From an uncultured Clostridia bacterium (lineage in GTDB: Bacteria > Bacillota > Clostridia > Tissierellales > Sedimentibacteraceae): a stretch of 64,000 nt of DNA. Below are positions 11,563 to 28,190 of the stretch, piece after piece; within the stretch, counting starts at the first letter, position 1; each line of letters opens with the position of its first letter. The notes beneath the pieces were generated by a model that worked only from the letters and a program-made list of their open reading frames with translations, searched no databases and had not been told where the DNA came from. The stretch covers positions 46,804 to 110,803 of the forward strand of contig CAYQYY010000007.1 in NCBI GenBank assembly GCA_964421845.1, in the 5' to 3' direction. Made by a program: the position numbers and the translations under genes.

Positions 11563-11629
11563 AACAGCGTGTAACTTTTAAATATAACGTCCCCCTTTAT
11601 TTTAATCATACGCTTTTTTCTTTTTTTTA
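11563..11629 (+). repeat. attL core: 67-bp direct repeat identical to 28046-28112
   Basis: AACAGCGTGTAACTTTTAAATATAACGTCCCCCTTTATTTTAATCATACGCTTTTTTCTTTTTTTTA aligned base by base with the right copy; 67/67 identical. Confidence 0.9.
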
Positions 11630-11733
11630 TTTAAGCGTTGAAATTAGAATAAATATTGATAATTCAAAGGGTTGCAAAAATGAGAGTTTATAATAAAGTA
11701 GGAATACCAAAAAAGGAGACTATATTATAAACT

Positions 11734-12690
11734 ATGGCACGAATAAAAATGCAAGATAAGAAACTAAAAGACATTGAAATTTCAACTGCTTGGGAAGAAT
11801 ATGAAAAAGAATTAAAAGTTAGAGGTTTAAGCAAGTTTAGTATTATAACTAAAAATTCTATATTCAAGGATTTTAGTAAATTCTGTAATACTGAAGCTAC
11901 CAAAACAAATGAATTAAATGAAAAGTTAGTTAACAATTATATCTTATGGCTGATGGAACGAGGAAATAAAAACACTACAATTAATAGTAAGATGACTAAC
12001 TTTAAACCTTTTGTCAATTGGTGTATTGAAAAAGAATATTGTGAAGAATTTAAAATTAAATCAGTTAATGCTGGACAAACTATTAAATCCACTTATTCAG
12101 TTAGTGATTTAGAGAAAATATTAGAGAAACCTAACATAAAAAAATGTACATTTGCAGAGTATAGAAACTGGGTGCTTTGCAATTATTTCCTTGCAACAGG
12201 AAACAGGTTAAATTCAGTTGTCAACATAAAGATTAAGGATATTGATTTTAATAATAATTTGGTTAAATTATCTGAAACTAAAAATAAGAAAGAACAGATA
12301 ATACCAATAACAATTCAACTAAGTAATATTTTAAAGGAATATTTGACATATAGAAACGGTGAACCAAATGATTATTTATTTGTTAATATAGATGGATTAC
12401 CATTGAAAAGAACATCCTGTCAGCAAGCTTTAATTCATTATACAAAAAAACAACATGGAATAAACATTAGTTCAATTCATGCTTTTCGTAGGACATTCGC
12501 AACAATGTATATTCAAAATGGCGGTAACTTATTTGCATTACAACAACTACTTGGACATTCAAAATTAGAAACCACAAGAAAATACGTGGTATTAGCATTA
12601 AAAGATTTGCAAGATAACTATGAACTATATAATCCTTTGGACGTTTTGATAAACAAGAATAAAAAAGAAAGAATTAAATTAAAAAAATAA
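11734..12690 (+). CDS. int: Tyrosine recombinase / phage integrase
   Basis: 318 aa. Catalytic residues in the expected order: LATGNRLNS (Arg), HAFRRTFAT (His-x-x-Arg), LLGHSKLETTRKY (His...Tyr). Adjacent to attL. Confidence 0.9.
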   Translation: MARIKMQDKKLKDIEISTAWEEYEKELKVRGLSKFSIITKNSIFKDFSKFCNTEATKTNELNEKLVNNYILWLMERGNKNTTINSKMTNFKPFVNWCIEKEYCEEFKIKSVNAGQTIKSTYSVSDLEKILEKPNIKKCTFAEYRNWVLCNYFLATGNRLNSVVNIKIKDIDFNNNLVKLSETKNKKEQIIPITIQLSNILKEYLTYRNGEPNDYLFVNIDGLPLKRTSCQQALIHYTKKQHGINISSIHAFRRTFATMYIQNGGNLFALQQLLGHSKLETTRKYVVLALKDLQDNYELYNPLDVLINKNKKERIKLKK

Positions 12691-12819: not shown

Positions 12820-13074
12820 ATGAAAGATTATTTATTTATACTATCAGAATCAAAAAAGGAAGTACAGGAAATCCAGCAGACTAATCCAATATACATTATA
12901 TACGATAACTACTTGCAGAAGTATTACGGTGAAACAGTTAAAGAGAACGAGGATTTTATACCTATGGACTTGGGAGATAAAATTATTATAGTATATTCGA
13001 TAGAGGATATAGATGAAGATTCTACTGAAAATATTTTTGATACAATGCAAGATATGTTATACATGAGGGCGTAA
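12820..13074 (+). CDS. Hypothetical acidic 84-aa protein
   Basis: GGAGG RBS, consensus promoter upstream and terminator downstream. No recognisable motif. Confidence 0.55.
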   Translation: MKDYLFILSESKKEVQEIQQTNPIYIIYDNYLQKYYGETVKENEDFIPMDLGDKIIIVYSIEDIDEDSTENIFDTMQDMLYMRA

Positions 13075-13088
13075 AAGCCCTTTTTTTT
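13067..13088 (+). terminator. Rho-independent terminator
   Basis: GGGC-gtaaaa-GCCC followed by T8. Overlaps the stop codon of the 84-aa ORF. Confidence 0.55.
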
Positions 13089-13147
13089 ATTGAAAATTCA
13101 ATTGTTACGAAAATATTAAAATATATTAAAATAATTTAATAAAACAC

Positions 13148-13176
13148 TTGACAACGTATTTGGGGTATGTTATACT
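13148..13176 (+). promoter_or_regulatory. SigA-type promoter TTGACA-N17-TATACT
   Basis: Read directly. It would give a leader of about 300 nt before the 966-aa ORF. Confidence 0.55.
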
Positions 13177-13478
13177 TATTGATGAGGGATTGTATATTTT
13201 TTTAAACAACAATATCCCTACATCATTTTGAGGAGGGAATTTATTTTTTTATTACTTTTATTCAGTTGGTTATATTTATCTCAATTTACATGATTATATC
13301 ACAACTGAATTAGTATGTCAACACTAAATTTTACATAAATGAAATAATTTTTAATTAGTAAGTAATACGATAAAATTCCTGTTTTATTAGGTTAGACAGA
13401 AAAACAAACGTTGGAATTTCAACACTTAAAATTTAACAAAATTATTGGAATTATATTAAAAAGAGGGGTAAGTAATAA

Positions 13479-16379
13479 ATGGCACAGTTACAAAATCAAA
13501 TACATATGTACAGTATAGATACAAGTTTTTTCTATACAACTAAAGAAACAAAATTATTGGAAGAAATAAAAAACCTTCAGAACATTAATAAAAAAGAGTT
13601 AAAACAGCCATATGAGAAAAAGAGAAAAGAAATAAAAAAGTTTAATGACAAATTAAAAGAGAGTGAAGTGTATTTAGAATATAGGGATGTACTTGACAAG
13701 CTAAAACAGTTATATAAATTGCGTAAAAGCTTTATTGAAAAAGGAATTAATAAAAAATCGCACGAATTGCATAATCAATTTTCAGAGAATGAAACAACAA
13801 TTAAGGAATTATATAATTATAAACAAGTATTAAAAATTGAAGTTGATAAAATAGAATTTTTAGATATAAAAGATACGGAAGAAAATAAAAAATATGAAAC
13901 TAACAAAAAGGAAATTGAAAAGTTAGAAATTAAATTAGAAAAAGAATTTAATAAAAATATTATAAGGAACATTACAAAAGAATTTACACCAGCTGATACA
14001 ATATCTAATTTTGAAAGTAGCTTGACAAGAACATTAAAAATTAAAACAAATGACACAACTGATAAATTGATTGTAATACGTGTTTATCACTATAATTTAT
14101 TTAAAAATTTAATTAAAAATGGTTTTAATCATAATAAAAAACATTACATATTCTTTACATCATCTTCTGGACAGCTTAAAGAAAAGAAAGCTATGTTTAT
14201 GGAAGAAAATGCTTTTAATGAACATAAAAACACAATCTATTGTGGCTTGACTAAAGATAAGATAAGCGAAAAGAAAGTAATAGTTAATAAGTATCTTTCA
14301 TATTTAGCGTTGACAGCTACAGCAAGTGAAAAATGGGAGAATTTTAATATTGATGAAGTTTTAATCGTTGATGATATGGAAAGTATTTTACCAAATACAG
14401 AAGTTAAATTTATTGATTATGATAATTATGATGAAAATGGTTTGTGGAAAGTTACAACAGAAAAGAAAGATATTAAGATTCCCGTTATGGATGGTGCTGG
14501 AATTTGTCTTGATTACACGGGTATTATCCGCCTTCCGTTTCTCAAAGGATTAGTTGTGCAGTTTTCATTCAAAGATTTTATTAAACAGAAAAGAATGGAA
14601 GAAAAAAGGGATGCAAGAAAAAAAGGTATTAAATTAACTGAAACTAAAATAGGTAAAGTTAAAGATATATGGAATAAAGAATATGACATAATTCAAGACA
14701 ATATTAGATATATATTCACAAAATCACAGTTTAAAATGTGGAAGTATTATGATAGTTGGGAAGAGTACAAGACAGCCTTCAAGGAATATAACTGTGAAGC
14801 ATCTAAATGTATTGAAGAAAGCAAACAATTTAAGAAAGCAAAATTTAGTTATCAAGCATTGCAATCACTATATGATTTATCGGATATTGAATTAAAGGAA
14901 ATTTTAAAAGATACCAATGAAACGATCGAAAATATAGGCAAAGATAGACAAACAATCTTAAAGACATTAGGTGCTACTGAATACAATGAAAAGAAAAATA
15001 ATTGGCAAGAAGCTTTAATGCTTTACCCAGAAATGCTGAATGACTTATATTCCAAAAGGATATTAAACGAAACTAAGGCAAGTATCATTAACAATTCAAG
15101 GTATGGAAAGTTTAAAGTTGATGGAACATACACTTTTATATTACCAGATGTATATGCTTTTGCTGAATGGTTATTCTGCCACAATGACAATCCAAAGGGG
15201 TTATTAAAAAATGGTGAAGTATCATGTAATCATTTTGCAGATAATCAAGAAGTATCATTAACCAGAAGTCCTCACTTAAATTTTAGTCATTGTGTAAATA
15301 AAAATGTAATAAATGATGATACAAAGAAATGGTTTAAAGCAAGTGGTGTTTATACAAGCATATTTTCAACTAATTCGCTTGTTATGGCTTATGATGTAGA
15401 TGGTGATGAAACATTAATAATATCAGAACCTACTATAATTAAATCAGCAAAAAGAATTAAGGAAAGACATAATTTTATTCCATTGTATTATGAAATGAAA
15501 AAAGGTAAACCAGCAAAGATAACAAATAAGAATTTATATAATTCAATGACTTCAGCATTTGGAAAAAGTGTTGGTGATACCTCAAACAATATAACTAAAA
15601 TATGGAATAAGGGTAATATTGATGAAGATGAAATAAAAGCTATGGATTATTTAACAATGTGGGCGAACTTCATCATAGATTTTACTAAAAGTCAATTTCT
15701 TCCTACTAAATCTGATGAAATGAGTAAGTTTTTAAGTCAATATACAAATAACAAATTACCTCACTTTATCAGATATATAAAAGATAAAAATAAAAACATT
15801 TATAAGATGAAAACCAGTGATAGAGAAGCAGCATTAGATGAAAAATATGCAATAACAAATAGTAGTGTTGTTAATAGGTTAGAAGAATTGGTATCTAATC
15901 CACCTAAAACATTTAAGGCTAAAAATTGTGGTAAATTTGATTATAAAATGCTTTTACATAATAAAAATATTGATACATCCACCAAACAAGCAAAGGCAAT
16001 TATAAGCAAGTTTAAATATCTAACTGGAAATAAAAAGTTTTACAGCAAGGAAGATGTAGAAGAAAAACATAAATATGCTAAAACATTTATAAAAGATGAA
16101 ACTTTAAAGATTAATAATAATGAAATTTATGTTGTTGATGTATTAGTTAAATATTATTATCACGATATAAAAAGCGATAACAAGAGAAGTTTGTGGGATA
16201 GTTTCGGGGATATTATATTGGAAAACATTAAGGAAAATATTCCAGCTAATACAATTCTCTGTGAAAAATGTGGGGAAAGAATTACTAAAACAAACAATAG
16301 AATAAAATATTGTCCTGAATGTGCAAAAGAAATTAATGCAGAAAAAACTAAAAACAATAAATATAAATTAGCAGTTTGA
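13479..16379 (+). CDS. YonO / cellular-RdRP-like two-barrel (double-psi beta-barrel) RNA polymerase candidate, with N-terminal Lys/Glu-rich coiled coil and C-terminal zinc ribbon
   Basis: 966 aa. MAYDVDGDE (D639-D643, nt 15393-15407) is preceded by TRSPHL (nt 15261-15275), about 40 aa upstream. MDGAGICL...IIRLPFLKG at residues 337-357. C-terminal CEKCGx13CPEC. GAGGGG RBS. Confidence 0.55.
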   Translation: MAQLQNQIHMYSIDTSFFYTTKETKLLEEIKNLQNINKKELKQPYEKKRKEIKKFNDKLKESEVYLEYRDVLDKLKQLYKLRKSFIEKGINKKSHELHNQFSENETTIKELYNYKQVLKIEVDKIEFLDIKDTEENKKYETNKKEIEKLEIKLEKEFNKNIIRNITKEFTPADTISNFESSLTRTLKIKTNDTTDKLIVIRVYHYNLFKNLIKNGFNHNKKHYIFFTSSSGQLKEKKAMFMEENAFNEHKNTIYCGLTKDKISEKKVIVNKYLSYLALTATASEKWENFNIDEVLIVDDMESILPNTEVKFIDYDNYDENGLWKVTTEKKDIKIPVMDGAGICLDYTGIIRLPFLKGLVVQFSFKDFIKQKRMEEKRDARKKGIKLTETKIGKVKDIWNKEYDIIQDNIRYIFTKSQFKMWKYYDSWEEYKTAFKEYNCEASKCIEESKQFKKAKFSYQALQSLYDLSDIELKEILKDTNETIENIGKDRQTILKTLGATEYNEKKNNWQEALMLYPEMLNDLYSKRILNETKASIINNSRYGKFKVDGTYTFILPDVYAFAEWLFCHNDNPKGLLKNGEVSCNHFADNQEVSLTRSPHLNFSHCVNKNVINDDTKKWFKASGVYTSIFSTNSLVMAYDVDGDETLIISEPTIIKSAKRIKERHNFIPLYYEMKKGKPAKITNKNLYNSMTSAFGKSVGDTSNNITKIWNKGNIDEDEIKAMDYLTMWANFIIDFTKSQFLPTKSDEMSKFLSQYTNNKLPHFIRYIKDKNKNIYKMKTSDREAALDEKYAITNSSVVNRLEELVSNPPKTFKAKNCGKFDYKMLLHNKNIDTSTKQAKAIISKFKYLTGNKKFYSKEDVEEKHKYAKTFIKDETLKINNNEIYVVDVLVKYYYHDIKSDNKRSLWDSFGDIILENIKENIPANTILCEKCGERITKTNNRIKYCPECAKEINAEKTKNNKYKLAV

Positions 16380-16728
16380 TTTAGAAAAATTTGTCTAATC
16401 AATGGATAAAGCGTAGAAAACACAGTGTTTGACAAAAAAGGTAAAAAAAGTTTTCCTTGGATAAATCGAACAAATCTTTTTGACAATCGAAAATTTAGTA
16501 TCACTATAGGGGAAGGAAAACAGTTTTCCTAAACATAGTATGAATTAATATACTTGCATTTTAAATGCTACATGAACAATATATTATGTTCCCCTATTTA
16601 ATCTTTAAACAATGCAGGGGAGAATGCCACTCCATGAGATATTAATTACTTCTCTCTTTGTGCAGAAGGTTTGACTTTCTGCCCTGTGTTGTTTAAAGAA
16701 AATAAATTAGATTAAAGGGGTATTGAAT

Positions 16729-16920
16729 ATGGAAGAAATAAAAATAATCAACTTAATACAAGCAAAAAGATATATTAAAAATGGTGTTTTTCCGATTAGA
16801 TTAGAAATTAGTAAATATATTACTAAACCAACAGATGATGATGATGTATTAGTATTTATATTTAACAAAGAAGATACAACAGAAGTTTGGGAAAAGTGGA
16901 AAAATAGAACTTTAGCATAA
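16729..16920 (+). CDS. Small hypothetical protein (DUF5659-like pattern)
   Basis: ATG at 16729 lies 8 nt after AAAGGGG and is preferred over TTG at 16723. 63 aa. Confidence 0.5.
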   Translation: MEEIKIINLIQAKRYIKNGVFPIRLEISKYITKPTDDDDVLVFIFNKEDTTEVWEKWKNRTLA

Positions 16921-16928: not shown

Positions 16929-17028
16929 AATGTGAACATTTCACTATGTTAATAATCAAGGGTATGAACATTTCAGTATATAAGGGTATGAACAGTTCAG
17001 TATGTAAGGGTGTGAACAGTTCAGTATC
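16929..17028 (+). repeat. Iterons: three tandem 24-bp repeats AAGGGTRTGAACAKTTCAGTATRT plus one degenerate upstream copy; candidate replication origin
   Basis: TGAACA cores at 16933, 16965, 16989 and 17013; the last three are exactly 24 bp apart. Lies directly upstream of the initiator-like gene. Confidence 0.7.
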
Positions 17029-17030
17029 CT

Positions 17031-17066
17031 ACTATATTAATGTACTATATTAAATTACTATATTAA
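17031..17066 (+). repeat. Three 13-bp-spaced copies of ACTATATTAA (AT-rich unwinding or DnaA-like box region of the origin)
   Basis: Copies at 17031-40, 17044-53 and 17057-66, read directly. Confidence 0.5.
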
Positions 17067-17203
17067 TTATATTGAAATTCCTATTCAGAATTTGTGCATA
17101 AGTTTTAAAAGATAAAGTTCAAGGTCAAAACATTCCAATAAGATAAAGGAATTATTTATGTATTGTTAATATTATAAAATTAAAATTAGAGAGGTATTGA
17201 AGT

Positions 17204-18382
17204 ATGAAGAAAAGAGAATTAGTTTACAAAAGTAAGGGTTTATATTATGAGTTGGATAAAAAGGGAATGGTTACAACTGGTTTTGCACAAGCAGATAATA
17301 ACATTATGAAAGAATTATGTATTGATTTCCACCCTAATGTTGCTATTGTATATTTTATGTTAATTAGTCATAGACATGGTGATAAGAATAATATTGAAAA
17401 ATATAATCAATGTTTTCCTACACAAGATATGTTAAGTAAAGAAACTGGATTGCATAAAGATACTATTGTTAAGTGTATTAGAACATTAGTAGAAAATGAA
17501 TATGTATTACATAGACAAGGTAATAGTCAACTTGCTAATCAATATTATTTCCCACAAGAAGAATTTTATCAAGGTGAAGGTGATTACTTACTTGATATTG
17601 TTGAGGATATAATTGATGATGAAGTAGTTGAAGAAATTCCCACTAATGATGATAACTTACCTTTCTTATCTGGTGATATTTTAGATAATAACGAAAGTTT
17701 TACACCAAAGGTAAAATATGTTAATGAAATAGATAATGATGATATATTTGATGATATATTGCCACCAATTAATAGTTCTGATGGATATGTTAAAGTATTC
17801 TATGATAATATGGTTAAATATTATGATATAACAGATGAAACTTTGGCAAATAATAATTATATAGATAAGAAAGTCAATTCCCTTATTGGATATGTTAAAG
17901 AAGAATTAGTTAAAAATAATATATTAGATATTACTGCTGATAAAGTTGTTACAGATATACTAAAAGGCAATAGGAAGTCATTCACAATTTCTTTAGGTGG
18001 TGCAAGTATAACTAAGGATTTTAATAAGTGTACTTACATTATTAGTTGTATTCAAAGTAACTTTACAAAAAAGAAATTGCCAGCATTGATTAAGAAACAT
18101 AGCAAAGATAAAATAGTTGATAAAGTTGTTGCTGATGATAATTTGGCTGATAGCTTAAATGATTTTTATGCTGATGATGATATGTTTGATTACATGAAAA
18201 AAAATTCTATTAATTCTAATAAAAAGGTTGATTTATCAAACGAAAAATATAATGGTGATTGGAAGTTTGAAAAGCAAAATAATGTAATTACAATAAATAA
18301 AAATAAATTTCCTATTGCGGAAGATGAAGATTTCTTTTTTAATGATGATGCAAAAAAGCAATTTGAGGAATTATTTGGTTAA
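17204..18382 (+). CDS. Replication initiator / replisome organiser candidate (N-terminal winged HTH, acidic C-terminal half)
   Basis: 392 aa. wHTH FPTQDMLSKETGLHKDTIVKCIRTLVENEYVLH. Sits next to the iterons. No enzymatic motif seen. Confidence 0.5.
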   Translation: MKKRELVYKSKGLYYELDKKGMVTTGFAQADNNIMKELCIDFHPNVAIVYFMLISHRHGDKNNIEKYNQCFPTQDMLSKETGLHKDTIVKCIRTLVENEYVLHRQGNSQLANQYYFPQEEFYQGEGDYLLDIVEDIIDDEVVEEIPTNDDNLPFLSGDILDNNESFTPKVKYVNEIDNDDIFDDILPPINSSDGYVKVFYDNMVKYYDITDETLANNNYIDKKVNSLIGYVKEELVKNNILDITADKVVTDILKGNRKSFTISLGGASITKDFNKCTYIISCIQSNFTKKKLPALIKKHSKDKIVDKVVADDNLADSLNDFYADDDMFDYMKKNSINSNKKVDLSNEKYNGDWKFEKQNNVITINKNKFPIAEDEDFFFNDDAKKQFEELFG

Positions 18383-18451
18383 ATAACGTTTGCAATAATA
18401 TATAAATAGTAGTAAAATATTGGTAAAATATATTATATGGGGGTAGAAATA

Positions 18452-19021
18452 ATGAGTGATGGTCTTGCTTGGGCAATAATTATTTTAGTTCCAACAGCAT
18501 TTATATTAATAATTGTTTATGCAGTTAATAAATCAAGTAAAGATAAAATTATTGTTTCAGAAGCAAGTAAAAATTTATTTGCGACTTATGATAAGGTTAT
18601 TGTGCTTAGTGAAAACATAATAAATGGTATTTTTACTTATGTAGCATTTGATAATAAAAACAGAAAATTGATAATACAATTATACAATACTGCAATTAAG
18701 TATATTGACTATGATAAAATTGTTGGTGTTGAATTAATTGAAGATGGTTCAACAAGTTTAAGTTTTGGAAATATTATAGGTGGTAGTATTTTAGCTGGTG
18801 AAGCTGGTGCTATAATAGGTGGTATGAATAGAAAAGAAACAGTAAGTAATTTATCCATAAAAATTAGTTTAAATGATTTTAATACACCTTCTTATGAACT
18901 TATCATGTTTACTGGTGTAAAGGTTAAAAAAAGTGAAAAAGTTTATATTGAATCAATAAAACATTCAAATGAAATTATTGATACAATTAAATATATCATA
19001 AATAATAAACAAAAAATATAA
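18452..19021 (+). CDS. Membrane-anchored hypothetical protein (one N-terminal TM plus Gly-rich hydrophobic segment)
   Basis: ATG at 18452 follows a GGGGGTAG RBS. TM AWAIIILVPTAFILIIVYAV. GNIIGGSILAGEAGAIIGG segment. Confidence 0.55.
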   Translation: MSDGLAWAIIILVPTAFILIIVYAVNKSSKDKIIVSEASKNLFATYDKVIVLSENIINGIFTYVAFDNKNRKLIIQLYNTAIKYIDYDKIVGVELIEDGSTSLSFGNIIGGSILAGEAGAIIGGMNRKETVSNLSIKISLNDFNTPSYELIMFTGVKVKKSEKVYIESIKHSNEIIDTIKYIINNKQKI

Positions 19022-19041
19022 TTAAAGAGGGGTAGAAAAAT

Positions 19042-19281
19042 ATGTTTATTGAAGTAAAAAAAGGTGTTTTAATTAATGTAGATAACATAATAAGTTTTCA
19101 ATATTATAATGCAGATGATGATATTAATAAATTTACCATTGAAGCAATATTAAAAGATTGTGAAGGCATTATTAATGATGATTTGAATAAAAATCATAGA
19201 ACGGTATATATTGCAGAAAATATTGATAAAAAGAAATTTGAACAATTTTTAAAAGTTTTTGATGTTGTTAGTTTTAAATAA
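19042..19281 (+). CDS. Hypothetical 79-aa protein
   Basis: GAGGGG RBS. No motif recognised. Confidence 0.5.
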   Translation: MFIEVKKGVLINVDNIISFQYYNADDDINKFTIEAILKDCEGIINDDLNKNHRTVYIAENIDKKKFEQFLKVFDVVSFK

Positions 19282-19374
19282 AATTGTAATTTATTTATAA
19301 ACTTAAGTATTAAGACATTTCGCTAATAGGAGTGTCTTTTTTAATGCAAAAAATATAATAAAGGGGTAAGTAAT

Positions 19375-19668
19375 ATGTTTAAAAAATTAAGAATTAAATT
19401 ATTTAGAAAAAGTAAAAAGGAAATATATAAGGATATGCATTTTTTGTGTCTTGAAATATCAGATATTTTAGAAGAAATATCAGAGGACTTAGATGATTTG
19501 CATGAGTCAGTAAATGAAAGTTTGCGATTAACATTAATCGTTCAAGAACAATGTAATGAAATAATATCAAAAATGGAAAAGAACAACGACCGTAAAGTTG
19601 ACCGAACACTTGAAGAAATCGTTGATAATATTGAAAAGTTAGTAGGTAAAGAAAATGCAAGAGAATAG
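19375..19668 (+). CDS. Hypothetical 97-aa helical/acidic protein
   Basis: AAAGGGG RBS. Predicted coiled-coil composition. Confidence 0.5.
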   Translation: MFKKLRIKLFRKSKKEIYKDMHFLCLEISDILEEISEDLDDLHESVNESLRLTLIVQEQCNEIISKMEKNNDRKVDRTLEEIVDNIEKLVGKENARE

Positions 19669-19882
19669 AAGAATATATAGTTTGAATTTAATATCATATC
19701 TTACAAAACGAGGTGTATTATTAAATTTAGATGTTAATGCTGATGGTAAACTATTTGCTACTTGTAAAAATGACATTACTTATCTAATTGAAGAATATCG
19801 AAATGATAAAGAATTACAATCATTTTTACACAGCTATAAAATAATTAGAGATAAAATAAAAGAATTAAAAATACAACAATAG
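19655..19882 (+). CDS. Small hypothetical protein (DUF5659-like pattern)
   Basis: 75 aa. Overlaps the upstream ORF by 14 nt and is followed by a strong terminator. Confidence 0.45.
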   Translation: MQENRRIYSLNLISYLTKRGVLLNLDVNADGKLFATCKNDITYLIEEYRNDKELQSFLHSYKIIRDKIKELKIQQ

Positions 19883-19883
19883 G

Positions 19884-19912
19884 AGATACCGATAGTTTGG
19901 TATCTTCTTTTT
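19884..19912 (+). terminator. Rho-independent terminator
   Basis: AGATACC-gatagttt-GGTATCT followed by TCTTTTT. Confidence 0.7.
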
Positions 19913-19983
19913 AGTTAAATTAAAAGAAGATAAAAGATAATAACTAAAATTGCAAATACCAATTAAATTGGTTTGTGATTACA

Positions 19984-20556
19984 ATGCAATATGAATATAA
20001 GAGAGATGTTAATTGGAAAAAAGATTTAGCAATTGGAAGTAAACAAGAAAGTAAGTTTGAAATATTTATGAAATCATTTGGATATGTTGTTGAAGATGTT
20101 AGTAAAGTAAAAGAATATCAGCAGATTGATGTTGATTTTAAAGTTACTAATACAACAAAAGGTGTAACTAATTTATTTGAAGTTAAGCAAGATAAAACTT
20201 TGGCTAAACATGATTACGTTAGAAGAAGATTAATAATTGAGGACATATCAAGTGTTAAAGATAGATATGGCAATGTTGTTAATACAAATGGCTGGTATCG
20301 TAAATGTAAGTCTGATTATATAGTTATTGGAAATAATGACAGTAAGATGTATATGTACAAGTTAGCTGATGTTAGGGAATATATTGGTTTGTTTGCTGGT
20401 AATAAGGATAGAGTTATTTATTATCAGTTGGGTAATTCTATGATGTTTGGCTTGTATCAAAAGAAGTTTGATAGTTGGTTAATAGATAATAATAAGATTT
20501 GTAAGGTATTTTATTTGGATAGTAACAAATGTAGATGCAGAAAGGATGTGATATAG
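19984..20556 (+). CDS. PD-(D/E)xK nuclease-fold candidate
   Basis: QQIDVDFKV...(13 aa)...LFEVKQD fits the D...ExK restriction-endonuclease-like motif. Start is ambiguous (GTG 19975 or ATG 19984) and the RBS is weak. Confidence 0.4.
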   Translation: MQYEYKRDVNWKKDLAIGSKQESKFEIFMKSFGYVVEDVSKVKEYQQIDVDFKVTNTTKGVTNLFEVKQDKTLAKHDYVRRRLIIEDISSVKDRYGNVVNTNGWYRKCKSDYIVIGNNDSKMYMYKLADVREYIGLFAGNKDRVIYYQLGNSMMFGLYQKKFDSWLIDNNKICKVFYLDSNKCRCRKDVI

Positions 20557-20970
20557 ATGCCTAAATTAAGAGGTGCTGATGGAAAGTATAAACCAATCAC
20601 AGGGTTAAGTAATGAACAATCGCAAGCTATATTTATGTTAGTGTATGGTGATTATAAATATAATAAAGATATATATGAGGAATTAAACGTTCCTAAATCA
20701 ACATTTTACCATTGGTTTACGCAAGATTTATTTGTTGAGGAATTAACTAAAGCAAGAAATGCAAAGTTTAAAGAAATGAGTAATAAAGCATTGAAAAAGC
20801 TTGATGAACTATTGGATAGTCAAGATTCAAGAAGTGCTATAAGGGCTGTGGAGATGGTATTAAAAGAAAATAATCACTTGCGAGATAAATTAGACGTTGA
20901 TGTCAACACCACACAAGAAATAAAAATAACATTATTTGATAGTGAAAACGAAGAAGAAACAGAGGAATAA
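20557..20970 (+). CDS. terS: Terminase small subunit candidate
   Basis: 137 aa. HTH IYEELNVPKSTFYHWF and an acidic C-terminal tail. It is the last ORF before terL. Confidence 0.5.
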   Translation: MPKLRGADGKYKPITGLSNEQSQAIFMLVYGDYKYNKDIYEELNVPKSTFYHWFTQDLFVEELTKARNAKFKEMSNKALKKLDELLDSQDSRSAIRAVEMVLKENNHLRDKLDVDVNTTQEIKITLFDSENEEETEE

Positions 20971-21511
20971 CAGGTAAATTGGTTGAAAATGGGAATGTAT
21001 AAGGTTTGTATACTATTTGGACAAAATCATTAATTATGTCGCAAAATGAAGATTAGGTATCATAATCCATATTATAGTAAGTAAATAATTACATATAACA
21101 AGTATAATAAACGTTGATATTGCAAGGTTAATGATGATTATTCATTGTTTGCCTTGCTTTATTTATGGAAATGTATAAAATATTAGTGCTGATTTAAGCT
21201 AAAATAGCAAGTTTGAAATGTATATTGGTGTATATTTATTAGGATAAAAGCAAAGTTTTATTATAGGGGTTACCCCTTTATATTGAAAAGGTCGATTTAG
21301 TCATTGTAAAATAAGATACAGATATAAATTTAACCTTAACTAAAACTCACTACAAAACTTTTAAACAAACGCAATTATCCAAACGATTATTTACTCAACC
21401 AACAACTAAACTTAATAATTTACCCCTAAAACAAGCTAAAAAGGTAAGTAAAAGGGGTATCAGATACAGGCAGACATTGAAATATATGTTTGCTTTTTTA
21501 TATGTAAGTAG

Positions 21512-22747
21512 GTGAAGAAAATAAATATTAAAATAGATAAAAATGTATTTAATGAAGTATATCTTCCTTATATGTTTGATTATAAAACTCATAAAACGAT
21601 TGTTATGATGGGTGGTGCTGGAAGTGGTAAATCACACGCTTTGGCACAACTAATGGTGATAAAAGCACTTTCCAGCAAGAGAAAGATATTAATATTAAGA
21701 AAAATATCAGCAACATTAAAAGATTCTGTTTGGCAATTAATATTAGATACATTATCATTTTTTCAACTTTATGATGATTGTAAGATTAATAAAAGTGAAA
21801 TGAAGATAATTCTGCCTAATCAATCAATATTACTGTTTAAAGGTGTTGATGATGCTGGGGAACGCTTAAAAAGTATCACATCGCTGACGGACTGCTGGAT
21901 AGAAGAGGCAACAGAAATATCATTAGATGAGTTTACACAAATTAAATTAAGAATAAGGGCGAAAACGCCCAATAATCAGATATTTTTATCTTACAATCCA
22001 ATAGACCGTAACAACTGGGTTTACAATGCTTTCCACAATGAAGAAACAAGAGATAAGGTTGTTCACGTTGTAAAGACAACGTATAAAGACAACAAATTCT
22101 TGCCTGATGATTATATAGCTGAATTAGAAAACATGAGGGAAATTAACCCTTACTATTATCAAGTTTATGCTTTAGGTGAGTTTGGGACAACTTCCCTTAC
22201 AGTCTACAATAATTGGAAAGTTGAAAAGTTAGATATTCAAGAATTGTTAAAGCAGAATTTACAATTATGTTGTGGTCTTGATACAGGCTTTAACCACCCA
22301 TATGCGATAACAATATCTTTGGTGGACAAATCTAACAAGATAATTTATGTCATAGATGAGATGAGTAAACGAGGTATTACCAATGCTGATGCCTATAAAT
22401 GGATATGTGATAATGGGTATGGTGCAAATCAATTTATAGCTGATTCAGCATCTCCACGTGATATTGAAGAATTAAGACGTATGGGGTTAAGAATTAAAGG
22501 TGCAAAAAAAGGACACAACTCTGTAAAAAATGGAATCCAACGAATCTTAAATTACAAAGTAGTCATAGATGAATCAAATACTAACTTTATTGATGAAATT
22601 ATGGGATATGCTTGGAAGAAAGACAAAAATTCTAACTATACGGATGAAGTTAATGCTGTAAATGATGATAATTTAGACGCTTGGCGTTATTCGTTGGAAG
22701 GTGTATTAGATAGAAAGAAACCTAAGATACTTACAGTTAAATTGTAA
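21512..22747 (+). CDS. terL: Terminase large subunit (PBSX-type)
   Basis: 411 aa. Walker A MMGGAGSGKSHA, Walker B/coupling DCWIEEATE, C-terminal RNaseH-like nuclease part (GLDTGF...DSASP...DDNLDAWRY). GTG start. Confidence 0.85.
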   Translation: MKKINIKIDKNVFNEVYLPYMFDYKTHKTIVMMGGAGSGKSHALAQLMVIKALSSKRKILILRKISATLKDSVWQLILDTLSFFQLYDDCKINKSEMKIILPNQSILLFKGVDDAGERLKSITSLTDCWIEEATEISLDEFTQIKLRIRAKTPNNQIFLSYNPIDRNNWVYNAFHNEETRDKVVHVVKTTYKDNKFLPDDYIAELENMREINPYYYQVYALGEFGTTSLTVYNNWKVEKLDIQELLKQNLQLCCGLDTGFNHPYAITISLVDKSNKIIYVIDEMSKRGITNADAYKWICDNGYGANQFIADSASPRDIEELRRMGLRIKGAKKGHNSVKNGIQRILNYKVVIDESNTNFIDEIMGYAWKKDKNSNYTDEVNAVNDDNLDAWRYSLEGVLDRKKPKILTVKL

Positions 22748-22765: not shown

Positions 22766-24082
22766 GTGATTAAAATATTTTATATAGATAAAAATGTTGA
22801 ATTAACAACAGAACATATTAAAAAATATATTGAGATATTTAAAACTCAATACTTACCAAAATTAAAAACCAATAAAGCATATTATGATGCAAAAAATCCA
22901 CCGATTATGAATAGAGTAATGGCAGATCCAGACAAACCAAACAACAAGATTGCAGTTCCATATGTAAAATACGTTTCTACCCTGATTAATGGATTCTTTT
23001 TAGGTGGAAAAGCTATTAATTATACAATTCCAGATGAACAACTTGAAGCAATTATAAACGCAAATAAGGAAACTGAACAATCGCACAATATCGACATTGG
23101 TAAGAATTGTAGTATATACGGCGTTTCTTATGAATTATTGTACCTTAATAATAACAGACAATTAAAAATGACATTATTAAATTCAGAACAGGTAATACCT
23201 ATATATGATAATTCCATTGATGGTGATTTATTATATTGCATACGTTTTTGGGATGAAACTAACGTATTAGACAATAAAACAACAACAAATATTGAATTAT
23301 ACACAAATACTGATATAAAAATATTTAAGATGGAAAACAATTCAATATCTTTGGTGGAAGTTAAACAGCACTATTTTTTAACTTGTCCTGTAAATGTATT
23401 TAAAAATAATAATTCCTTAACTGGTGATTCAGAGTGTGTATTTAAGTTAATTGATGGTTTAGATGTCGCTTTGAGTGATACAGCAAATTTTAGACAAGAA
23501 TTAAATGATAGCTATCTTTGCATCTTCAATGGAAACTTGACAGATTCTGATTTAAGACTAATGAAATCAAATCGTATCTTCAGTATCGATAGTGACGAAA
23601 ATAATTCAGCGAGAATTGAATGGCTTAATAAGGATTCAAACGACACAGAGAACGAGAATTATAAAGACAGACTTGAAAATATGATTAAAAAGTTTTCATT
23701 TGTTGCCGATCTTGAAACTATTGCAACAAGTCATGTAAGTGCTGAATCAATTAAAAATGGCAGTTATGGAATTGAAGGAATTGTATCAGATAAAGAATCA
23801 TTTTTCAGACAAGCATTATTAAGACGTTTACAATTAATTTGTAATATTTATAATTTGTTCGGTAATGATTTTGATACTGAAAATGTTAAAATAACATTTA
23901 TTAGAAATATACCAAAAAATCTAAGTGCTATTGCCGACAACATAGCAAAATTAAAAGATACGGTTAGTACAAAGACACTTTTACAGCAAGTCCCGTTCGT
24001 AAATTCAGTATCAGATGAATTAAGGCAATTGGAAGAAGAAAAGAAACTTAATTACTACAATGAAAATACAAAAGATAATTAA
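22766..24082 (+). CDS. Portal protein (SPP1 gp6-like)
   Basis: 438 aa, immediately after terL. N-terminal KAYYDAKNPPIMNR resembles the SPP1-family YYxGxHxI region. Confidence 0.7.
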   Translation: MIKIFYIDKNVELTTEHIKKYIEIFKTQYLPKLKTNKAYYDAKNPPIMNRVMADPDKPNNKIAVPYVKYVSTLINGFFLGGKAINYTIPDEQLEAIINANKETEQSHNIDIGKNCSIYGVSYELLYLNNNRQLKMTLLNSEQVIPIYDNSIDGDLLYCIRFWDETNVLDNKTTTNIELYTNTDIKIFKMENNSISLVEVKQHYFLTCPVNVFKNNNSLTGDSECVFKLIDGLDVALSDTANFRQELNDSYLCIFNGNLTDSDLRLMKSNRIFSIDSDENNSARIEWLNKDSNDTENENYKDRLENMIKKFSFVADLETIATSHVSAESIKNGSYGIEGIVSDKESFFRQALLRRLQLICNIYNLFGNDFDTENVKITFIRNIPKNLSAIADNIAKLKDTVSTKTLLQQVPFVNSVSDELRQLEEEKKLNYYNENTKDN

Positions 24083-24248: not shown

Positions 24249-24794
24249 ATGGAAGATAATAAAGATAACATCAACGTTGATAATAAAGATAAAGATACTG
24301 ACACTATAACTATTTCTCAAGCTGATTTAGACAAGAAAATCCAACAAGCTATTTATGTGAATAGTCAAAATGAAAAGAAGAAGTATGAAAAGGAACTACA
24401 AAGACAAAAAAGTTTAATGGAAATGGATGAACAATCCCGTTTAATTGAGGAAAAGAAACAGCTTCAAGAACAATTAGCTGAAATTCAATTAACTAATTTA
24501 AAATATGAAACAGCAAAAGTTTTAAATAATAAGGGAATGAGTGCAGAGTTTGTAGATTTTGTAGTTGGTAATGATGCAGAAACAACACAAGCTAATATTG
24601 ATAAACTTGATAAATTGTTTAAAGCAGAAGTATTAAAAGAAGTAAGTAAAAGAGTTACTTCAACTGAAACAAAGAATAGCAATAATTCAAACAATAATGG
24701 AATTACAAAAGAACAATTTAGGAAAATGTCAATTGCTGAACAAACAAAATTGTTCAATTCTAATCCAGAGTTATATAAACAATTAACAAAATAA
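24249..24794 (+). CDS. Scaffolding protein (DUF4355-like coiled coil)
   Basis: 181 aa, Lys/Glu/Gln-rich helical protein, located between the portal and capsid genes. Confidence 0.6.
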   Translation: MEDNKDNINVDNKDKDTDTITISQADLDKKIQQAIYVNSQNEKKKYEKELQRQKSLMEMDEQSRLIEEKKQLQEQLAEIQLTNLKYETAKVLNNKGMSAEFVDFVVGNDAETTQANIDKLDKLFKAEVLKEVSKRVTSTETKNSNNSNNNGITKEQFRKMSIAEQTKLFNSNPELYKQLTK

Positions 24795-24845: not shown

Positions 24846-24875
24846 TAAAAATTAAAAATAAGGATGGTACATAAA

Positions 24876-25661
24876 ATGGCACTATACGAAAATTTCATAT
24901 TAGAAAATAAGGTTAAAGGATTTTTAGATACTCAACTTAATATGGGACAATTTTACACTCACGACGATTCATTAACAGAGAATGCAGGATTAAAAAAAAT
25001 CGTAAATGTTTATGATGCAGTTGGTTCAGTAGAAACGCTGGCAGTTGGTGTTGGAAATGATGAAGCTAATGATGTAGCTGTTAGCTTTACACCTGTAGAA
25101 TATGAAGTAGCTACAACTCAAGGTCGTCTACCTTTGTTTGATGAAAATATTATGCAAGACCCTATGTCTTTAGATACAGGTTTATCAAAATTATCTGCTG
25201 AAATGGTAAATGAAATTAATTCAAAATTCATTACAGAATTAGGGAAAGCAACTTTAACTTCTGAATATCCAACTACAGGTATTACATTTGATGCAATTGT
25301 AGATGGACTTGCTAAAGTTGGGGAAAATGAAAGTGGATATTTCCTATTAATTAACGTAAATCAACGTGCACAGTTAAGAAAGAATTTAAAAGATTCTTTA
25401 CAGTATGTTGAAGCATTTGCAAGAACTGGATATATTGGTTCTGTTAGTGGTGTTAACGTTTACACTTCAAATGCAGTTCCAGCTGATACAGCTTATCTTG
25501 CTAATCCTGAAGCAGTAACAGTTTTCACAAAGAAAGCAGTTGAAGTAGAACCAGATAGAGATGCTAACACAAGAAAAACAACTTTTTATGTTAGAATGGT
25601 TAATGTAGTTGCAAATACTGATTTAGGTAAAGTAGTTAAATTGACAAAAGCAGTAGCATAA
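24876..25661 (+). CDS. Major capsid protein candidate
   Basis: 261 aa from ATG 24876 (AAGGATGG RBS), preferred over ATG 24864. Sits after the scaffold gene. Composition is typical of small HK97-fold capsid proteins. Fold not verified. Confidence 0.6.
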   Translation: MALYENFILENKVKGFLDTQLNMGQFYTHDDSLTENAGLKKIVNVYDAVGSVETLAVGVGNDEANDVAVSFTPVEYEVATTQGRLPLFDENIMQDPMSLDTGLSKLSAEMVNEINSKFITELGKATLTSEYPTTGITFDAIVDGLAKVGENESGYFLLINVNQRAQLRKNLKDSLQYVEAFARTGYIGSVSGVNVYTSNAVPADTAYLANPEAVTVFTKKAVEVEPDRDANTRKTTFYVRMVNVVANTDLGKVVKLTKAVA

Positions 25662-25699: not shown

Positions 25700-25722
25700 A
25701 ATAAATAAGAGAGGTGAATAAA

Positions 25723-26016
25723 ATGACACCAACGGAAAATATTCAAACATTAACAGGTTTTACAGATACAGCTAAAATTGATGTATTAATTTTATTGACT
25801 AAAAAAGAAATAGAAACATACACCAAAAGAATATATGATACTTTGACAATGGATTCTCTATTAACTGAAATGGTAGTTTTCAAAGTGCAAAAATTAGGCA
25901 ATGAAGCAACTAAGTCGCTAACATATAATGATACAACTCAATCATTTTTGACTGATTATCCTACACCTATTTTAAGACAATTAAACGAGTTAAAAAAGAG
26001 GGTGCGTTTGTTATGA
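25723..26016 (+). CDS. Head-tail connector / DNA-packaging (gp6-like) protein candidate
   Basis: 97 aa from ATG 25723 (AGAGAGGTG RBS). A short helical protein directly after the capsid gene. Confidence 0.45.
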   Translation: MTPTENIQTLTGFTDTAKIDVLILLTKKEIETYTKRIYDTLTMDSLLTEMVVFKVQKLGNEATKSLTYNDTTQSFLTDYPTPILRQLNELKKRVRLL

Positions 26017-27608
26017 TTGGACACCAAATATTAGAAAACAAACTAATTAATCAATATAACAAAATGTATGATATATTCGCACAAAATAACGTCTTAAAAC
26101 TTAATTTAAGCAACGACAATGTTATTCAAGGGTTAATACAAGACGTAAAATCTGATAATGTTAATTCGACCTATAAAAAGGAGATTATAACACCTTATAA
26201 CACATTAAAGACTGGGGATTATATAACTCATACTTGTAATGGTAAAAGTATAAATTACATTTTAGAAAGTCAAATAGATACTGAAATAGGGTGCGATAAG
26301 GCATATCTTTTGGAATGTCCACTATCAATAAAGATTTTTGACTGGAATTATACAGATATACGAGAATATCCAATAGCATTAAAAAATAATAATGCAAGTT
26401 TAGGGGTTACTGAAGGTGTAATTTCAATTACAAATAATTCAAGTTTTGAAATAATAATGAAGTATGACATACATACCAGAAGTTTTGTCAAAAGTGATAA
26501 TTTAATAAATGGCATAGAACACGCTAAAATAACAAGGATACTATTAGATGGTTTAGCTTTTAGGGTTATAGGTGTTAATCACTTAATATCTAAAGGTTTA
26601 TTAGTAATATCTATTGAAACCACAAACATAACACCCGCCGATAATCTTGAATTAGGTGTTGCAGACTATACAACATATTACAGAGAACCTATTGATTATA
26701 ACGGTTTAATTGATGCTGAAATATTGAAATATGAACAAAATGCCACGATAACAAAAGATGTTTTAGCAAATATGGATATTTCAAATATTGTTAAGAAATT
26801 AAAGACAGGACAAACAGCTAATAATAATATTACTGTTAGTATATCAGCAGTTGGAGATAATGGACTATTAATTTTAAATGATGGTATAATTCGACTTAAA
26901 AATCAAATTTCTTTTGAGGATGATATAAATACAACAACAGTTACTTTATCATTCCTTTATGGTGGAATTACTAAAACTTTAACTGTAAATGTAACGATCG
27001 AAAAACAAGACAAAGTAATTACTGATGAAGATATAGTTGTCGCTGAAATGCCGAAGTATGAAACTACTGCTTTTATTGGTAAAGATGTTATTGCTGGTGA
27101 AGATATAACTTCATTAATTTTAAGGTTGAAAGCAGACCAGATAGCAAATCCAGAAGTTGATACTTATATTTCTTATGTAGATACTGACAATTTATTGACT
27201 TTAACTAATAGAGTAGTAACACTAACTAATGTAATTCCAGCGACAGCCACAGACAATGAAACCGTTGCAAATATCAGCTTTGTAAAGGGTGAAGCATTAA
27301 GGACAATTTCAGTATTTGTTACAATCGAAAAGCAAGATGATGTTGCCCCACCAGACTTGGTTATAACTGGCGAATATTTTGATATTTATAATGGAGATAC
27401 AAATGATTATAGCATTAATACAACTGACCCTGTTTATTGGAGTTTAAGAGGTGAAAATGCAAGTAAATTTACACTTAATACTAATGGAACAGCTAATACT
27501 TGTAGTGTTACTGCTGGAAGTCAAGTTAAACAAGGTGTAAATGTTACCCTTGTAGCCATTGTTAATGGATTTGAATATACAGTTGAGATAATTGGATTAA
27601 GTTTTTAA
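26013..27608 (+). CDS. Structural repeat protein (two ~95-aa tandem repeats plus C-terminal Ig-like domain); possible head fibre, adaptor or minimal tail
   Basis: 531 aa. Repeats both end in VTIEKQD (nt approx 26715-27011 and 27045-27338). The C-terminal ~85 aa look Big_2/Ig-like. ATG overlaps the upstream stop (ATGA). Confidence 0.5.
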   Translation: MIGHQILENKLINQYNKMYDIFAQNNVLKLNLSNDNVIQGLIQDVKSDNVNSTYKKEIITPYNTLKTGDYITHTCNGKSINYILESQIDTEIGCDKAYLLECPLSIKIFDWNYTDIREYPIALKNNNASLGVTEGVISITNNSSFEIIMKYDIHTRSFVKSDNLINGIEHAKITRILLDGLAFRVIGVNHLISKGLLVISIETTNITPADNLELGVADYTTYYREPIDYNGLIDAEILKYEQNATITKDVLANMDISNIVKKLKTGQTANNNITVSISAVGDNGLLILNDGIIRLKNQISFEDDINTTTVTLSFLYGGITKTLTVNVTIEKQDKVITDEDIVVAEMPKYETTAFIGKDVIAGEDITSLILRLKADQIANPEVDTYISYVDTDNLLTLTNRVVTLTNVIPATATDNETVANISFVKGEALRTISVFVTIEKQDDVAPPDLVITGEYFDIYNGDTNDYSINTTDPVYWSLRGENASKFTLNTNGTANTCSVTAGSQVKQGVNVTLVAIVNGFEYTVEIIGLSF

Positions 27609-27621: not shown

Positions 27622-27873
27622 ATGGATTTTAATGCAATATTAAATACTTTTGGTTTTCCAATTTCTGTGGCTATTGCTTGTGGTTGGTTTATATATAAAA
27701 TGTATACTGATAGTACAAAGCAAAATCAAGAACGGGAAGAACGTAATTATAAAGTTTTAGAAAAATTTTCAGTATCAATTGATAAGTTCGCGGATATTCT
27801 TGATGGATACGAAAAAAAATTATCAACAATTGAAAATGATGTTAGGGAAATAAAGATTATTGTAAATAAATAG
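27622..27873 (+). CDS. BhlA/UviB-family holin-like protein
   Basis: 83 aa. Single N-terminal TM FGFPISVAIACGWFIY followed by a charged coiled coil (QEREERNYKVLEKFS...), the BhlA architecture. Confidence 0.55.
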   Translation: MDFNAILNTFGFPISVAIACGWFIYKMYTDSTKQNQEREERNYKVLEKFSVSIDKFADILDGYEKKLSTIENDVREIKIIVNK

Positions 27874-28112: not shown

Positions 28113-28190
28113 ATTGCAATATTTTGCGAAAGATGTTATTATAAACACGGCAATAAAATATCATAAATTAACAGCTTTTAAGGGAGAAAC

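Follow-up and report, generated by a model that had tools for sequence, protein, structure and literature searches.

YonO-type enzymes are the simplest known relatives of the cellular RNA polymerases. Their namesake is encoded by SPbeta, a phage with a genome of 134 kb, in which the YonO target operon takes up about 35 kb. YonO is a processive DNA-dependent RNA polymerase that needs an Asp triad for catalysis and ignores pause signals (Forrest et al. 2017, PMC5467207). It reads 37 late genes as a single operon whose start site lies upstream of yonK, and deletion of yonO silences these genes (PMC5467207). To date YonO is the sole experimentally studied member of its family, and neither YonO-type promoters nor possible specificity factors have been defined so far (PMC5467207). 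Papers on the family deal with SPbeta-like phages, other large phages and sporadic copies in chromosomes. A second point of reference is provided by capsid-forming satellites (cf-PICI), whose gene set has been defined (PMC10085698). Here we describe a YonO-family polymerase of 966 amino acids (aa) encoded on a 16.5-kb integrative island, which lies in a 64,000-nucleotide (nt) stretch of DNA from an uncultured Clostridia bacterium (contig CAYQYY010000007.1, positions 46,804 to 110,803; hereafter the window). A previous reading made from the letters alone (the sequence-only reading) had proposed a two-barrel RNA polymerase of the YonO and cellular RNA-dependent RNA polymerase (RdRP) kind on this island, and the homology to YonO, the invariant residues, the fold and the Pfam RdRP matches of its relatives bear this out.

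The island polymerase and its family

The polymerase gene is, as claimed, an uninterrupted open reading frame (ORF) with an ATG start (13479-16379, 966 aa), and the strings quoted earlier from its product all occur where they had been placed. TRSPHLNFSHC forms residues 595-605 and LVMAYDVDGDETLI residues 634-647 with DVDGD at 639-643 inside, MDGAGICLDYTGIIRLPFLKG lies in the first barrel at 337-357, and KSVGDTSNNITKIW follows at 696-709, 53 aa past the acidic loop. The announced CxxC-x13-CxxC motif is seen near the C-terminus as the zinc-ribbon pattern C928-x2-C931-x13-C945-x2-C948. A Lys/Glu-rich N-terminus of about 190 aa had also been predicted. Lysine and glutamate make up 28-42% of each 50-aa block over the first ~150 aa, and the AlphaFold2 model predicts four long helices at residues 21-157; composition and helical character thus stand, while the extent shrinks to about 157 aa.

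Using tblastn against 50,697 phage records, we matched the polymerase to yonO of SPbeta/SPBc2 with 36% identity over residues 4-949 (98% coverage, E 3e-157), to Clostridium phage D-1873 with 43% identity and also to Psychrobacillus phage Perkons. In several phage records the matched gene is labeled DNA-directed RNA polymerase. PHROG 8308, labeled with the function 'unknown', matches the protein end to end (E 8.5e-200). Both the YonO and the PHROG match lie well outside what chance would give. Residue conservation was read from 120 aligned sequences, namely the window protein, SPbeta YonO and 118 relatives from databases. Invariant in all 120 are D338, G339, G341, R351, K356, G357, R596, P598, L600, D639, D641, G642, D643, G699, N703 and the cysteines 928, 931 and 948, and C945 is kept in 119. 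The residues singled out for such a check by the sequence-only reading (D639, D641, D643, R596 and K356) are all among them, and so are the first-barrel strings DGxG and R...KG, which it had marked as unsure and which are real. Ruprich-Robert and Thuriaux listed eight residues common to all two-barrel polymerases, represented in QDE-1 by D709, R738, K743, R962, P964 and D1007/1009/1011 (PMC2919709). This set maps to D338, R351, K356, R596, P598 and D639/641/643 of the island polymerase, with spacings equal to those of QDE-1 for R-K (5) and R-P (2) and with 43 vs 45 residues from R to the first Asp.

The AlphaFold2 model, built from 71 sequences, is confident (pLDDT 92.9, pTM 0.83). Searching it against the PDB with Foldseek yielded 21 significant matches with E from 7.7e-15 to 4.8e-9 over ~730-980 aligned columns; every one is to RDR2 or QDE-1, and the best PDB match beyond these had an E of 0.8. 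In BFVD the two best matches (E 6e-31 and 3e-26) carry the annotation phage RNA-dependent RNA polymerase. In Pfam the protein has sub-threshold zinc-ribbon matches only and does not match RdRP (PF05183) at E <= 1. Since 27 of 47 aligned family members do match PF05183 (best 4.6e-18), its link to this profile is transitive. HMMER searches of PDB sequences with the single protein and with the family profile returned no relevant match, so that only the fold, or the transitive route via Pfam, reveals the kinship with QDE-1 and RDR2. Given the Foldseek matches to RDR2 and QDE-1 and the Pfam RdRP matches of relatives, the earlier fold assignment is correct; no other fold came up, and the DVDGD loop does not vary among the aligned homologs. 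The island ORF is a YonO-family single-subunit two-barrel RNA polymerase, a further member of a known family.

In structure the protein is closest to RNA-dependent enzymes, and several database entries call relatives 'RNA-dependent RNA polymerase', as if the protein were an enzyme like RDR2 or QDE-1 that amplifies RNA in regulation or to interfere with a helper phage. However, these database names derive from the Pfam label and not from experiment, and SPbeta YonO, 36% identical over the full length, is DNA-dependent (PMC5467207). We regard an RNA-dependent enzyme as highly improbable; by analogy with YonO, the island polymerase would be DNA-dependent.

A family search with the island polymerase returned at least 239 clusters at E <= 1e-5. 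Among species-representative genomes we confirmed 250 YonO-family loci, the majority from Paenibacillus, Bacillus relatives, Lachnospiraceae and Oscillospiraceae. With this many loci the enzyme cannot be called rare, and rarity is limited to its carrier: an island-type context was found at only 2 of 80 species-representative YonO loci (L007 and L009). The sequence-only reading had called an island with its own polymerase unusual, which holds for the carrier but not for the enzyme, whose frequency in Bacillota it had missed. A member of this enzyme class is no surprise in mobile DNA of Bacillota; its ownership by a satellite-type element is. What is new here is the carrier, a tail-less capsid-forming island with a two-barrel polymerase as conserved core gene. 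A full-text literature search, itself of incomplete coverage, found no report of satellites with their own polymerase. It is possible, and we put it forward tentatively, that the islands are the first satellite family with its own terminator-insensitive RNA polymerase, allowing autonomous late transcription and perhaps reading of a helper's tail and lysis operon too.

Other carriers of the family are the large SPbeta-like phage genomes L002 and L003, with polymerases 51-55% identical to the window protein. Here the polymerase gene is followed by HU, YonJ, YonG, a Terminase_6N-type TerL, YonD and YonB. Among the 64 representative loci with enough downstream sequence, an HU neighbor is present at no fewer than 27 and detectable SPbeta-type late genes at 22. 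In the island, Pfam, PHROG and locus comparison revealed neither HU (yonN) nor late genes of the YonJ, YonG, TerL(6N), YonD and YonB types. Many SPbeta-like phages (phi3T, SPR, Goe11/Goe14, SPbetaL4-L7, BUCT083) have yonO split into two matched pieces ~1.3 kb apart, annotated yonO_1, hypothetical and yonO_2. For BUCT083 a GIY-YIG nuclease is annotated, and the split seems to be an intron or homing-endonuclease-type insertion.

The island, its relatives and its gene content

The island measures 16,483 bp between 70-nt direct repeats (69/70 identical), in agreement with the 16.5 kb claimed for it. The att core holds a GCGTGT...ACGC hairpin and then a long T-run, suggesting that the island inserts into an apparent terminator 3' of a histidine-kinase gene and regenerates this terminator. 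It is flanked by a two-component system on one side and by EPSP_synthase-family (MurA-type), radical-SAM, LysE and pseudouridine synthase genes on the other. Within the island G+C falls to 23-29%, and every gene is on the plus strand (Table 1).

The same architecture, with the polymerase gene between integrase and initiator, recurs in several related islands: L004 from a bioreactor metagenome (polymerase 96% identical to the window protein), L088 (80%), L007 from a Bacilli metagenome-assembled genome (73%), L005 (66%), L009 from Firmicutes bacterium UBA5227 (53%), L099 (50%) and L098 (48%). At least eight related islands keep the gene in this slot, with identities of about 47-96%, and the assembled genomes of relatives are labeled Sedimentibacter sp., Firmicutes bacterium UBA5227 and Bacilli bacterium. 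The small gene orf65 accompanies the polymerase gene (92% in L005, 88% in L007), and genes of 61-63 aa occupy its position in L004, L098 and L099. In a neighbor-joining tree, which is rough and carries no support values, the island enzymes form one clade, and its sister clade, 43-55% identical to the window protein, includes the large-phage enzymes. In L005 and L099 the last island genes run through the att core into the integrase with host DNA absent between them, and L099 is a 15.8-kb circularly permuted contig; such junctions would arise from an excised circle, from a concatemer or from a tandem copy. The integrated L098 has its integrase split into two ORFs (139 + 126 aa, at 8066-8997) with the remainder intact, and may be an immobilized copy.

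Two further variants, L089/L095 and L090/L096, sit at the same host site as the window island and have the capsid arm in common with it but differ in the left arm. In L089/L095 (L095, JGI 3300011906) the slot is taken by a very divergent two-barrel polymerase (L089 1-2028; 23% identity by tblastn; hhalign 97%, E 4e-11) with an ISRNP strand and a DFDADG loop in which Ala replaces the usual Gly. A DEAD/ResIII helicase accompanies it in place of the HTH_36 initiator. In L090/L096 (L096, JGI 3300011715) a small HTH_3 protein, repeats and a helicase are found. The L090 slot (1324-4329) consists of ~3 kb of A-rich DNA with ~100-nt internal repeats and no ORF of at least 60 aa; its only small genes encode the HTH_3 protein (58 aa) and a 56-aa ORF. 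L090/L096 lacks a polymerase gene; a degraded one in the L090 slot was considered, but tblastn with both polymerase types gave no match. Beside attR, L095 carries an 83-aa ORF, an AAA_15/AAA_21 ATPase (447 aa) and a 222-aa partner (12171-14544), by sequence a cargo in the place and with the look usual for a satellite anti-phage defense pair.

With its own capsid and packaging genes and without tails, the window island is, on gene content, a capsid-forming, satellite-like element. Pfam, PHROG and a fold search of its ORFs identified no tail tube, tape measure, baseplate, tail knob or endolysin. The head genes are followed by orf531, whose start codon overlaps the adaptor stop codon. Its product has no match in Pfam, PHROG or PADLOC and belongs to an island-specific family of 28 members. 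Its model (pLDDT 80) matches cadherin repeats and S-layer Sap in Foldseek, and the protein is probably a surface fiber, decoration or adhesin, and not a recognizable tail component. Kinship with the SPbeta late protein YomX, hinted at by a precomputed weak YomX_N tag on relatives, was not supported (hhalign probability 0.1%; no Pfam match). The neighboring orf83 is a BhlA/UviB-like holin-like, or bacteriocin-peptide-like, candidate with a weak PHROG match, and no endolysin to go with it was found by Pfam or PHROG.

Some of these features would suit a temperate phage that is autonomous but very small, or else a prophage in decay, in which the polymerase would be an ordinary phage late polymerase: orf531 overlaps the adaptor and could be a fiber, orf83 is holin-like, the L098 integrase is split, and IMG/VR lists relatives as viral contigs. 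The missing tail and lysin genes speak against this, as does the 16-kb gene set, which recurs whole in at least 10 samples, where att repeats are near-perfect and junctions of the circular type occur. Such intact recurrence makes decay unlikely to explain the island, and we consider a phage or prophage very unlikely overall.

A PADLOC search of the ORFs of unknown function and of the polymerase revealed no defense system beyond a marginal match of orf97 to a cyclase model (E 8.6e-4). Rfam families were not matched anywhere in the island, even with the cutoff relaxed to E <= 1. Elsewhere in the window, a NiCo riboswitch (59299-59391; 77.6 bits, E 2.6e-16) lies directly 5' of a P-type cation ATPase gene (59506-62043); it is ordinary host regulation unrelated to the island.

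Table 1 Features of the island and of its polymerase. Positions refer to the window, except where residue numbers are given.
Feature	Position	Strand	Basis
attL, left 70-nt direct repeat	11563..11632	.	69/70 identical to 28046-28115
Tyrosine integrase	11734..12690	+	Pfam Phage_integrase 1.3e-30; PHROG 1 integrase 8e-41
orf84, small acidic protein, variable slot between integrase and polymerase	12820..13074	+	ORF
Conserved control region of polymerase gene	13075..13478	.	Promoters, hairpin, palindromic boxes
YonO-family single-subunit two-barrel RNA polymerase, 966 aa	13479..16379	+	Homology, invariant residues, fold model
Polymerase, N-terminal helical K/E-rich arm	residues ~20-157		Residue numbering
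Polymerase, first barrel	D338/R351/K356		Residue numbering
Polymerase, second barrel	R596-S-P598 + D639-V-D641-G-D643		Residue numbering
Polymerase, Cys4 zinc ribbon	residues 928-948		Residue numbering
orf65, small protein	16723..16920	+	PHROG 31036, labeled unknown function
Candidate replication origin	16932..17067	.	Iterons, 13-nt repeats, AT-rich DNA
Replication initiator (Rep), HTH_36 / DnaD_N-like N-terminus	17204..18382	+	Pfam HTH_36 6.8e-8; PHROG replication initiation O-like
Five small ORFs without assigned function: orf194 (membrane/PH_gly_zipper), orf79, orf97, orf75, orf193	18437..20556	+	ORF calls, Pfam/PHROG
Small terminase subunit TerS	20557..20970	+	Pfam HTH_Tnp_1_2 1.8e-13; PHROG terminase small subunit 8.6e-13
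Non-coding TerS-TerL leader, 540 nt	20971..21511	+	Conservation across islands
Large terminase subunit TerL (Terminase_3 type)	21512..22747	+	Pfam 1.2e-55
Portal protein (SPP1 gp6 type)	22766..24082	+	Pfam 9.8e-81
Head scaffolding protein	24249..24794	+	Pfam DUF4355 3.2e-19; PHROG 172
Major capsid protein	24864..25661	+	PHROG 544 major head protein 4.1e-22; precomputed Phage_capsid_4
Head-tail adaptor	25714..26016	+	PHROG 132 head-tail adaptor 2e-9
orf531, tandem Ig/cadherin-like beta-sandwich domains (predicted)	26013..27608	+	Model, Foldseek
orf83, N-terminal transmembrane helix + charged tail	27622..27873	+	PHROG 2429 1.5e-5; hydropathy
attR, right 70-nt direct repeat	28046..28115	.	69/70 identical to attL

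Control region, leader and likely target of the enzyme

A sigma-70-type promoter (TTGACA-17-TATACT with TG, 13148-13176) points toward the polymerase gene and faces a convergent perfect promoter on the minus strand (13321-13293) ~100 bp away; the control region also holds a hairpin. Across four islands this region (400 bp) keeps 78% nucleotide identity with both promoters invariant, whereas the polymerases of these islands are only 53-96% identical. The convergent promoters are flanked by palindromic TTGAAATTTCAA boxes (TTGRAAWTTCAA at 13090-13101 and 13411-13422), and another lies in the integrase 5' region (11774-11785). The window contains five matches to the box, four of which (at three sites) are in the left arm of the island, compared with 0.46 expected in the whole window. 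The polymerase-less L090 left arm also has four, at 407, 1663, 1854 and 2188. The boxes look like an operator common to the islands, for a putative repressor. Together with the invariant sigma-70-type promoter, they suggest that the enzyme is probably made by host polymerase under repressor-type control. Upstream of this region, orf84 has a perfect TTGACA-17-TATAAT promoter on its 5' side (12762-12790) and a terminator-like hairpin on its 3' side (13065-13082), and a homolog of it (40%) lies upstream of the YonO gene in the phage-type locus L002.

In the capsid arm, conservation is higher in the non-coding TerS-TerL leader than in the two genes beside it: TerL is 34-73% identical across the islands, and long leader blocks are invariant. 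The leader is 540-750 nt long and has a variable central insert; it was located in L004 (12905-13610), L007 (~7586-8210), L009 (~9132-9878) and also in L088-L094. The single-copy 21-mer TGTATATTTATTAGGATAAAA (21229-21249) is identical in 10 lineages, and GGGGTTACCCC lies close by at 21265-21277. A hairpin with T-run at about 21127-21171 has apparent compensatory changes in its inner stem, as judged by eye from the alignment. A terminator-like hairpin (21468-21495) directly precedes the TerL ribosome-binding site, with two pairs kept by double changes in 8 of 9 lineages, and UCAACCAAC is predicted to pair with the TerL Shine-Dalgarno region. From these features it could combine a late promoter with an attenuator leader, act as a pac site, or do both.

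The island had been described as terminator-studded, and the count agrees with this: it contains 14 terminator-like hairpins vs 3.3 +/- 2.1 in shuffled sequence, a four-fold excess. Such sites follow orf84, orf79 (19312-19338), orf75 (19881-19908) and, as a strong hairpin, the major capsid gene (25669-25690). The SPbeta record likewise annotates eight same-strand stem-loops within the cluster transcribed by YonO. In light of these stem-loops and of the pause insensitivity of YonO, a terminator-tolerant island polymerase that unlocks a guarded capsid operon would be a coherent model.

We propose the following for induction logic, target genes, terminator read-through and helper dependence. In the integrated state, the left arm would be silenced via the control region with its palindromic boxes and convergent promoters. 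Upon induction, host RNA polymerase would read the polymerase gene from the sigma-70-type promoter. The island enzyme would then transcribe the late module (TerL, portal, scaffold, capsid, adaptor, orf531 and orf83), which intrinsic terminators in the TerS-TerL leader and between genes would shield from host polymerase; the YonO equivalent would be the hairpin-studded SPbeta late operon. Finally, Rep and the iterons would amplify the excised circle, and the DNA would be packed into island-made heads needing tails from elsewhere. By analogy with YonO, the packaging and capsid operon is the most likely target of the enzyme. Overall, we favor with moderate confidence the explanation that a YonO-type polymerase conserved in tail-less capsid-forming islands transcribes their own late module, and that these ~16-kb integrative islands of anaerobic Bacillota have long had it in their core gene set.

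The polymerase could instead serve replication, by primer synthesis or by transcriptional activation of the adjacent origin, as T7 RNA polymerase primes or activates the T7 primary origin. A candidate iteron origin next to the gene, as claimed by the sequence-only reading, was found: four iterons GTGAACAKTTCASTAT occupy 16932-17029, three of them in a 24-nt tandem array, and three 13-nt repeats and AT-rich DNA follow directly upstream of the Rep gene. The polymerase gene lies ~550 bp upstream of the iterons and Rep, islands of the window type have no primase or helicase and only the HTH_36 initiator, and polymerase and replication module are exchanged together between island variants. However, the polymerase-less variant is also primase-free, so host priming suffices there, and the sister island pairs its two-barrel polymerase with a helicase and not with an HTH_36 Rep. 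The sole studied homolog is a late-gene transcriptase whose deletion silences 37 late genes, and because SPbeta YonO serves late genes, transcription of the capsid module is favored over replication priming (PMC5467207). We find a role in replication quite unlikely.

Another candidate target is the late operon of a helper phage or prophage with its tail and lysis genes, instead of or besides the island itself. P4 delta offers a precedent in that it trans-activates P2 late genes, albeit as an activator, whereas here a polymerase would be supplied. The island lacks tails and lysin and must get both elsewhere, the sister clade of the island enzymes includes those of the SPbeta-like phages L002 and L003, where such polymerases drive late operons, and an orf84 homolog adjoins the YonO gene in L002. 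In addition, the polymerase-less variant keeps the leader, as if served by a polymerase in trans. Nevertheless, the portal is nearest to those of ~48-kb Clostridium siphophages (30% identity) and not to SPbeta-like phages, the adaptor has no relative in the 50,697 phage records, and no promoter motif common to island and phage loci was found. The YomX_N hint for orf531 relatives was not reproduced, and no prophage lies elsewhere in the 64-kb window. Neither the portal and adaptor searches nor the window pointed to a particular helper. A helper operon as target thus appears unlikely.

Published P_YonO primers put the YonO start site ~1.2 kb upstream of yonK (PMC5467207), which places the primer-extension region at ~6282-6520 of our SPbeta locus (L001). 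The surrounding yonN-yonK gap (6022-7702) is 1.7 kb of non-coding and relatively G+C-rich DNA. A box, CATTTATGARGGT, occurs twice near this start (6253 and 6410) and is loosely like the island 21-mer; it may be part of the YonO promoter or of a leader RNA. We tried and rejected the island 21-mer as a polymerase-specific promoter, as it is single-copy and present in the polymerase-less variant too.

Several observations weigh against transcription of the late module by the island enzyme. No promoter for the enzyme was found in the island, nor any promoter motif common to it and SPbeta or other YonO loci. As a common YonO promoter the CATTTATGARGGT box failed, being neither enriched nor positioned 3' of YonO genes (61 plus-strand vs 54 minus-strand matches, 83 loci). 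An nhmmer profile of the leader matches this island family only and no SPbeta-type locus. The leader, including the invariant 21-mer, is present in the polymerase-less L090/L096, so the capsid arm is presumably expressible without an island-encoded polymerase. Terminator read-through by YonO-type enzymes is a prediction, and helper dependence is putative: orf531 could be a short fiber and orf83 a holin. The rough tree behind the island clade and the protein's own lack of a Pfam RdRP match belong on this side as well.

If the proposal is true, satellites are able to capture a basic information-processing enzyme and not just regulators, and satellite-owned functions would extend from capsids and terminases to transcription. 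At 16.5 kb, the island would also be the most compact natural system to unite a single-subunit polymerase of the two-barrel type with its promoter and target operon. With few candidate promoters, a conserved partner gene (orf65) and a highly conserved leader before the probable target, this compact setting opens promoter recognition, terminator read-through and minimal requirements to direct tests. The left-arm swaps at one chromosomal site, with a YonO-type polymerase, a distant two-barrel polymerase or none, amount to a natural experiment on the dispensability of transcriptional autonomy.

Comparison with known systems

The island enzyme and SPbeta YonO are homologous over their full length, have the same eight catalytic and nucleotide-binding residues and the same C-terminal Cys4 ribbon, and both are encoded on a temperate Bacillota mobile element upstream of a hairpin-studded structural module. 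Unlike YonO, the island enzyme is ~130 aa longer, mostly in the N-terminal helical arm. Its carrier is a tail-less island of 16.5 kb compared with a 134-kb phage, and has genes of the SPP1-portal/Terminase_3 type instead of the HU (yonN) neighbor and the YonJ/YonG/YonD/YonB-type genes. The activity of YonO is known by experiment, whereas that of the island enzyme is predicted from sequence and model.

Among PDB structures, QDE-1 and RDR2 come closest to the model (Foldseek E as low as 8e-15, ~850-980 columns) and have the DxDGD loop, the R-x-P strand and the first-barrel D/R/K residues in common with it. On the other hand, sequence identity is ~10-12%, and both are eukaryotic silencing enzymes with other accessory domains. 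The template of the island enzyme is expected to be DNA, as for YonO.

In lifestyle the island resembles cf-PICI. Both are integrase-bearing, att-bounded and much smaller than a phage, with their own TerS, TerL, portal, capsid and head-tail adaptor and no tail genes found, with an accessory slot near the integrase and, in the relative L095, attR-side cargo. The cf-PICI core markers AlpA/Stl/MerR-type regulator, primase-replicase, HNH and prohead protease were not found in the island using Pfam and PHROG (SatelliteFinder profiles were not used). Instead of the protease the island has a scaffold, and it has an HTH_36 initiator with iterons. A further cf-PICI trait is the lack of holin genes; on this point, orf83 of the island has one N-terminal transmembrane helix and a weak BhlA/UviB-like PHROG match. 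With the core markers missing, the island is cf-PICI-like in lifestyle and not a demonstrated member, and it probably represents an independent origin of that lifestyle. None of the satellite families described in the literature searched has a 966-aa RNA polymerase.

The likeness to P4 delta and epsilon acting on P2 is one of function only, without homology: in both cases a satellite would take over late transcription ahead of the helper's program. For this P4 has small proteins, activator and antirepressor, acting on the RNA polymerase of the host, whereas the island would supply the polymerase itself.

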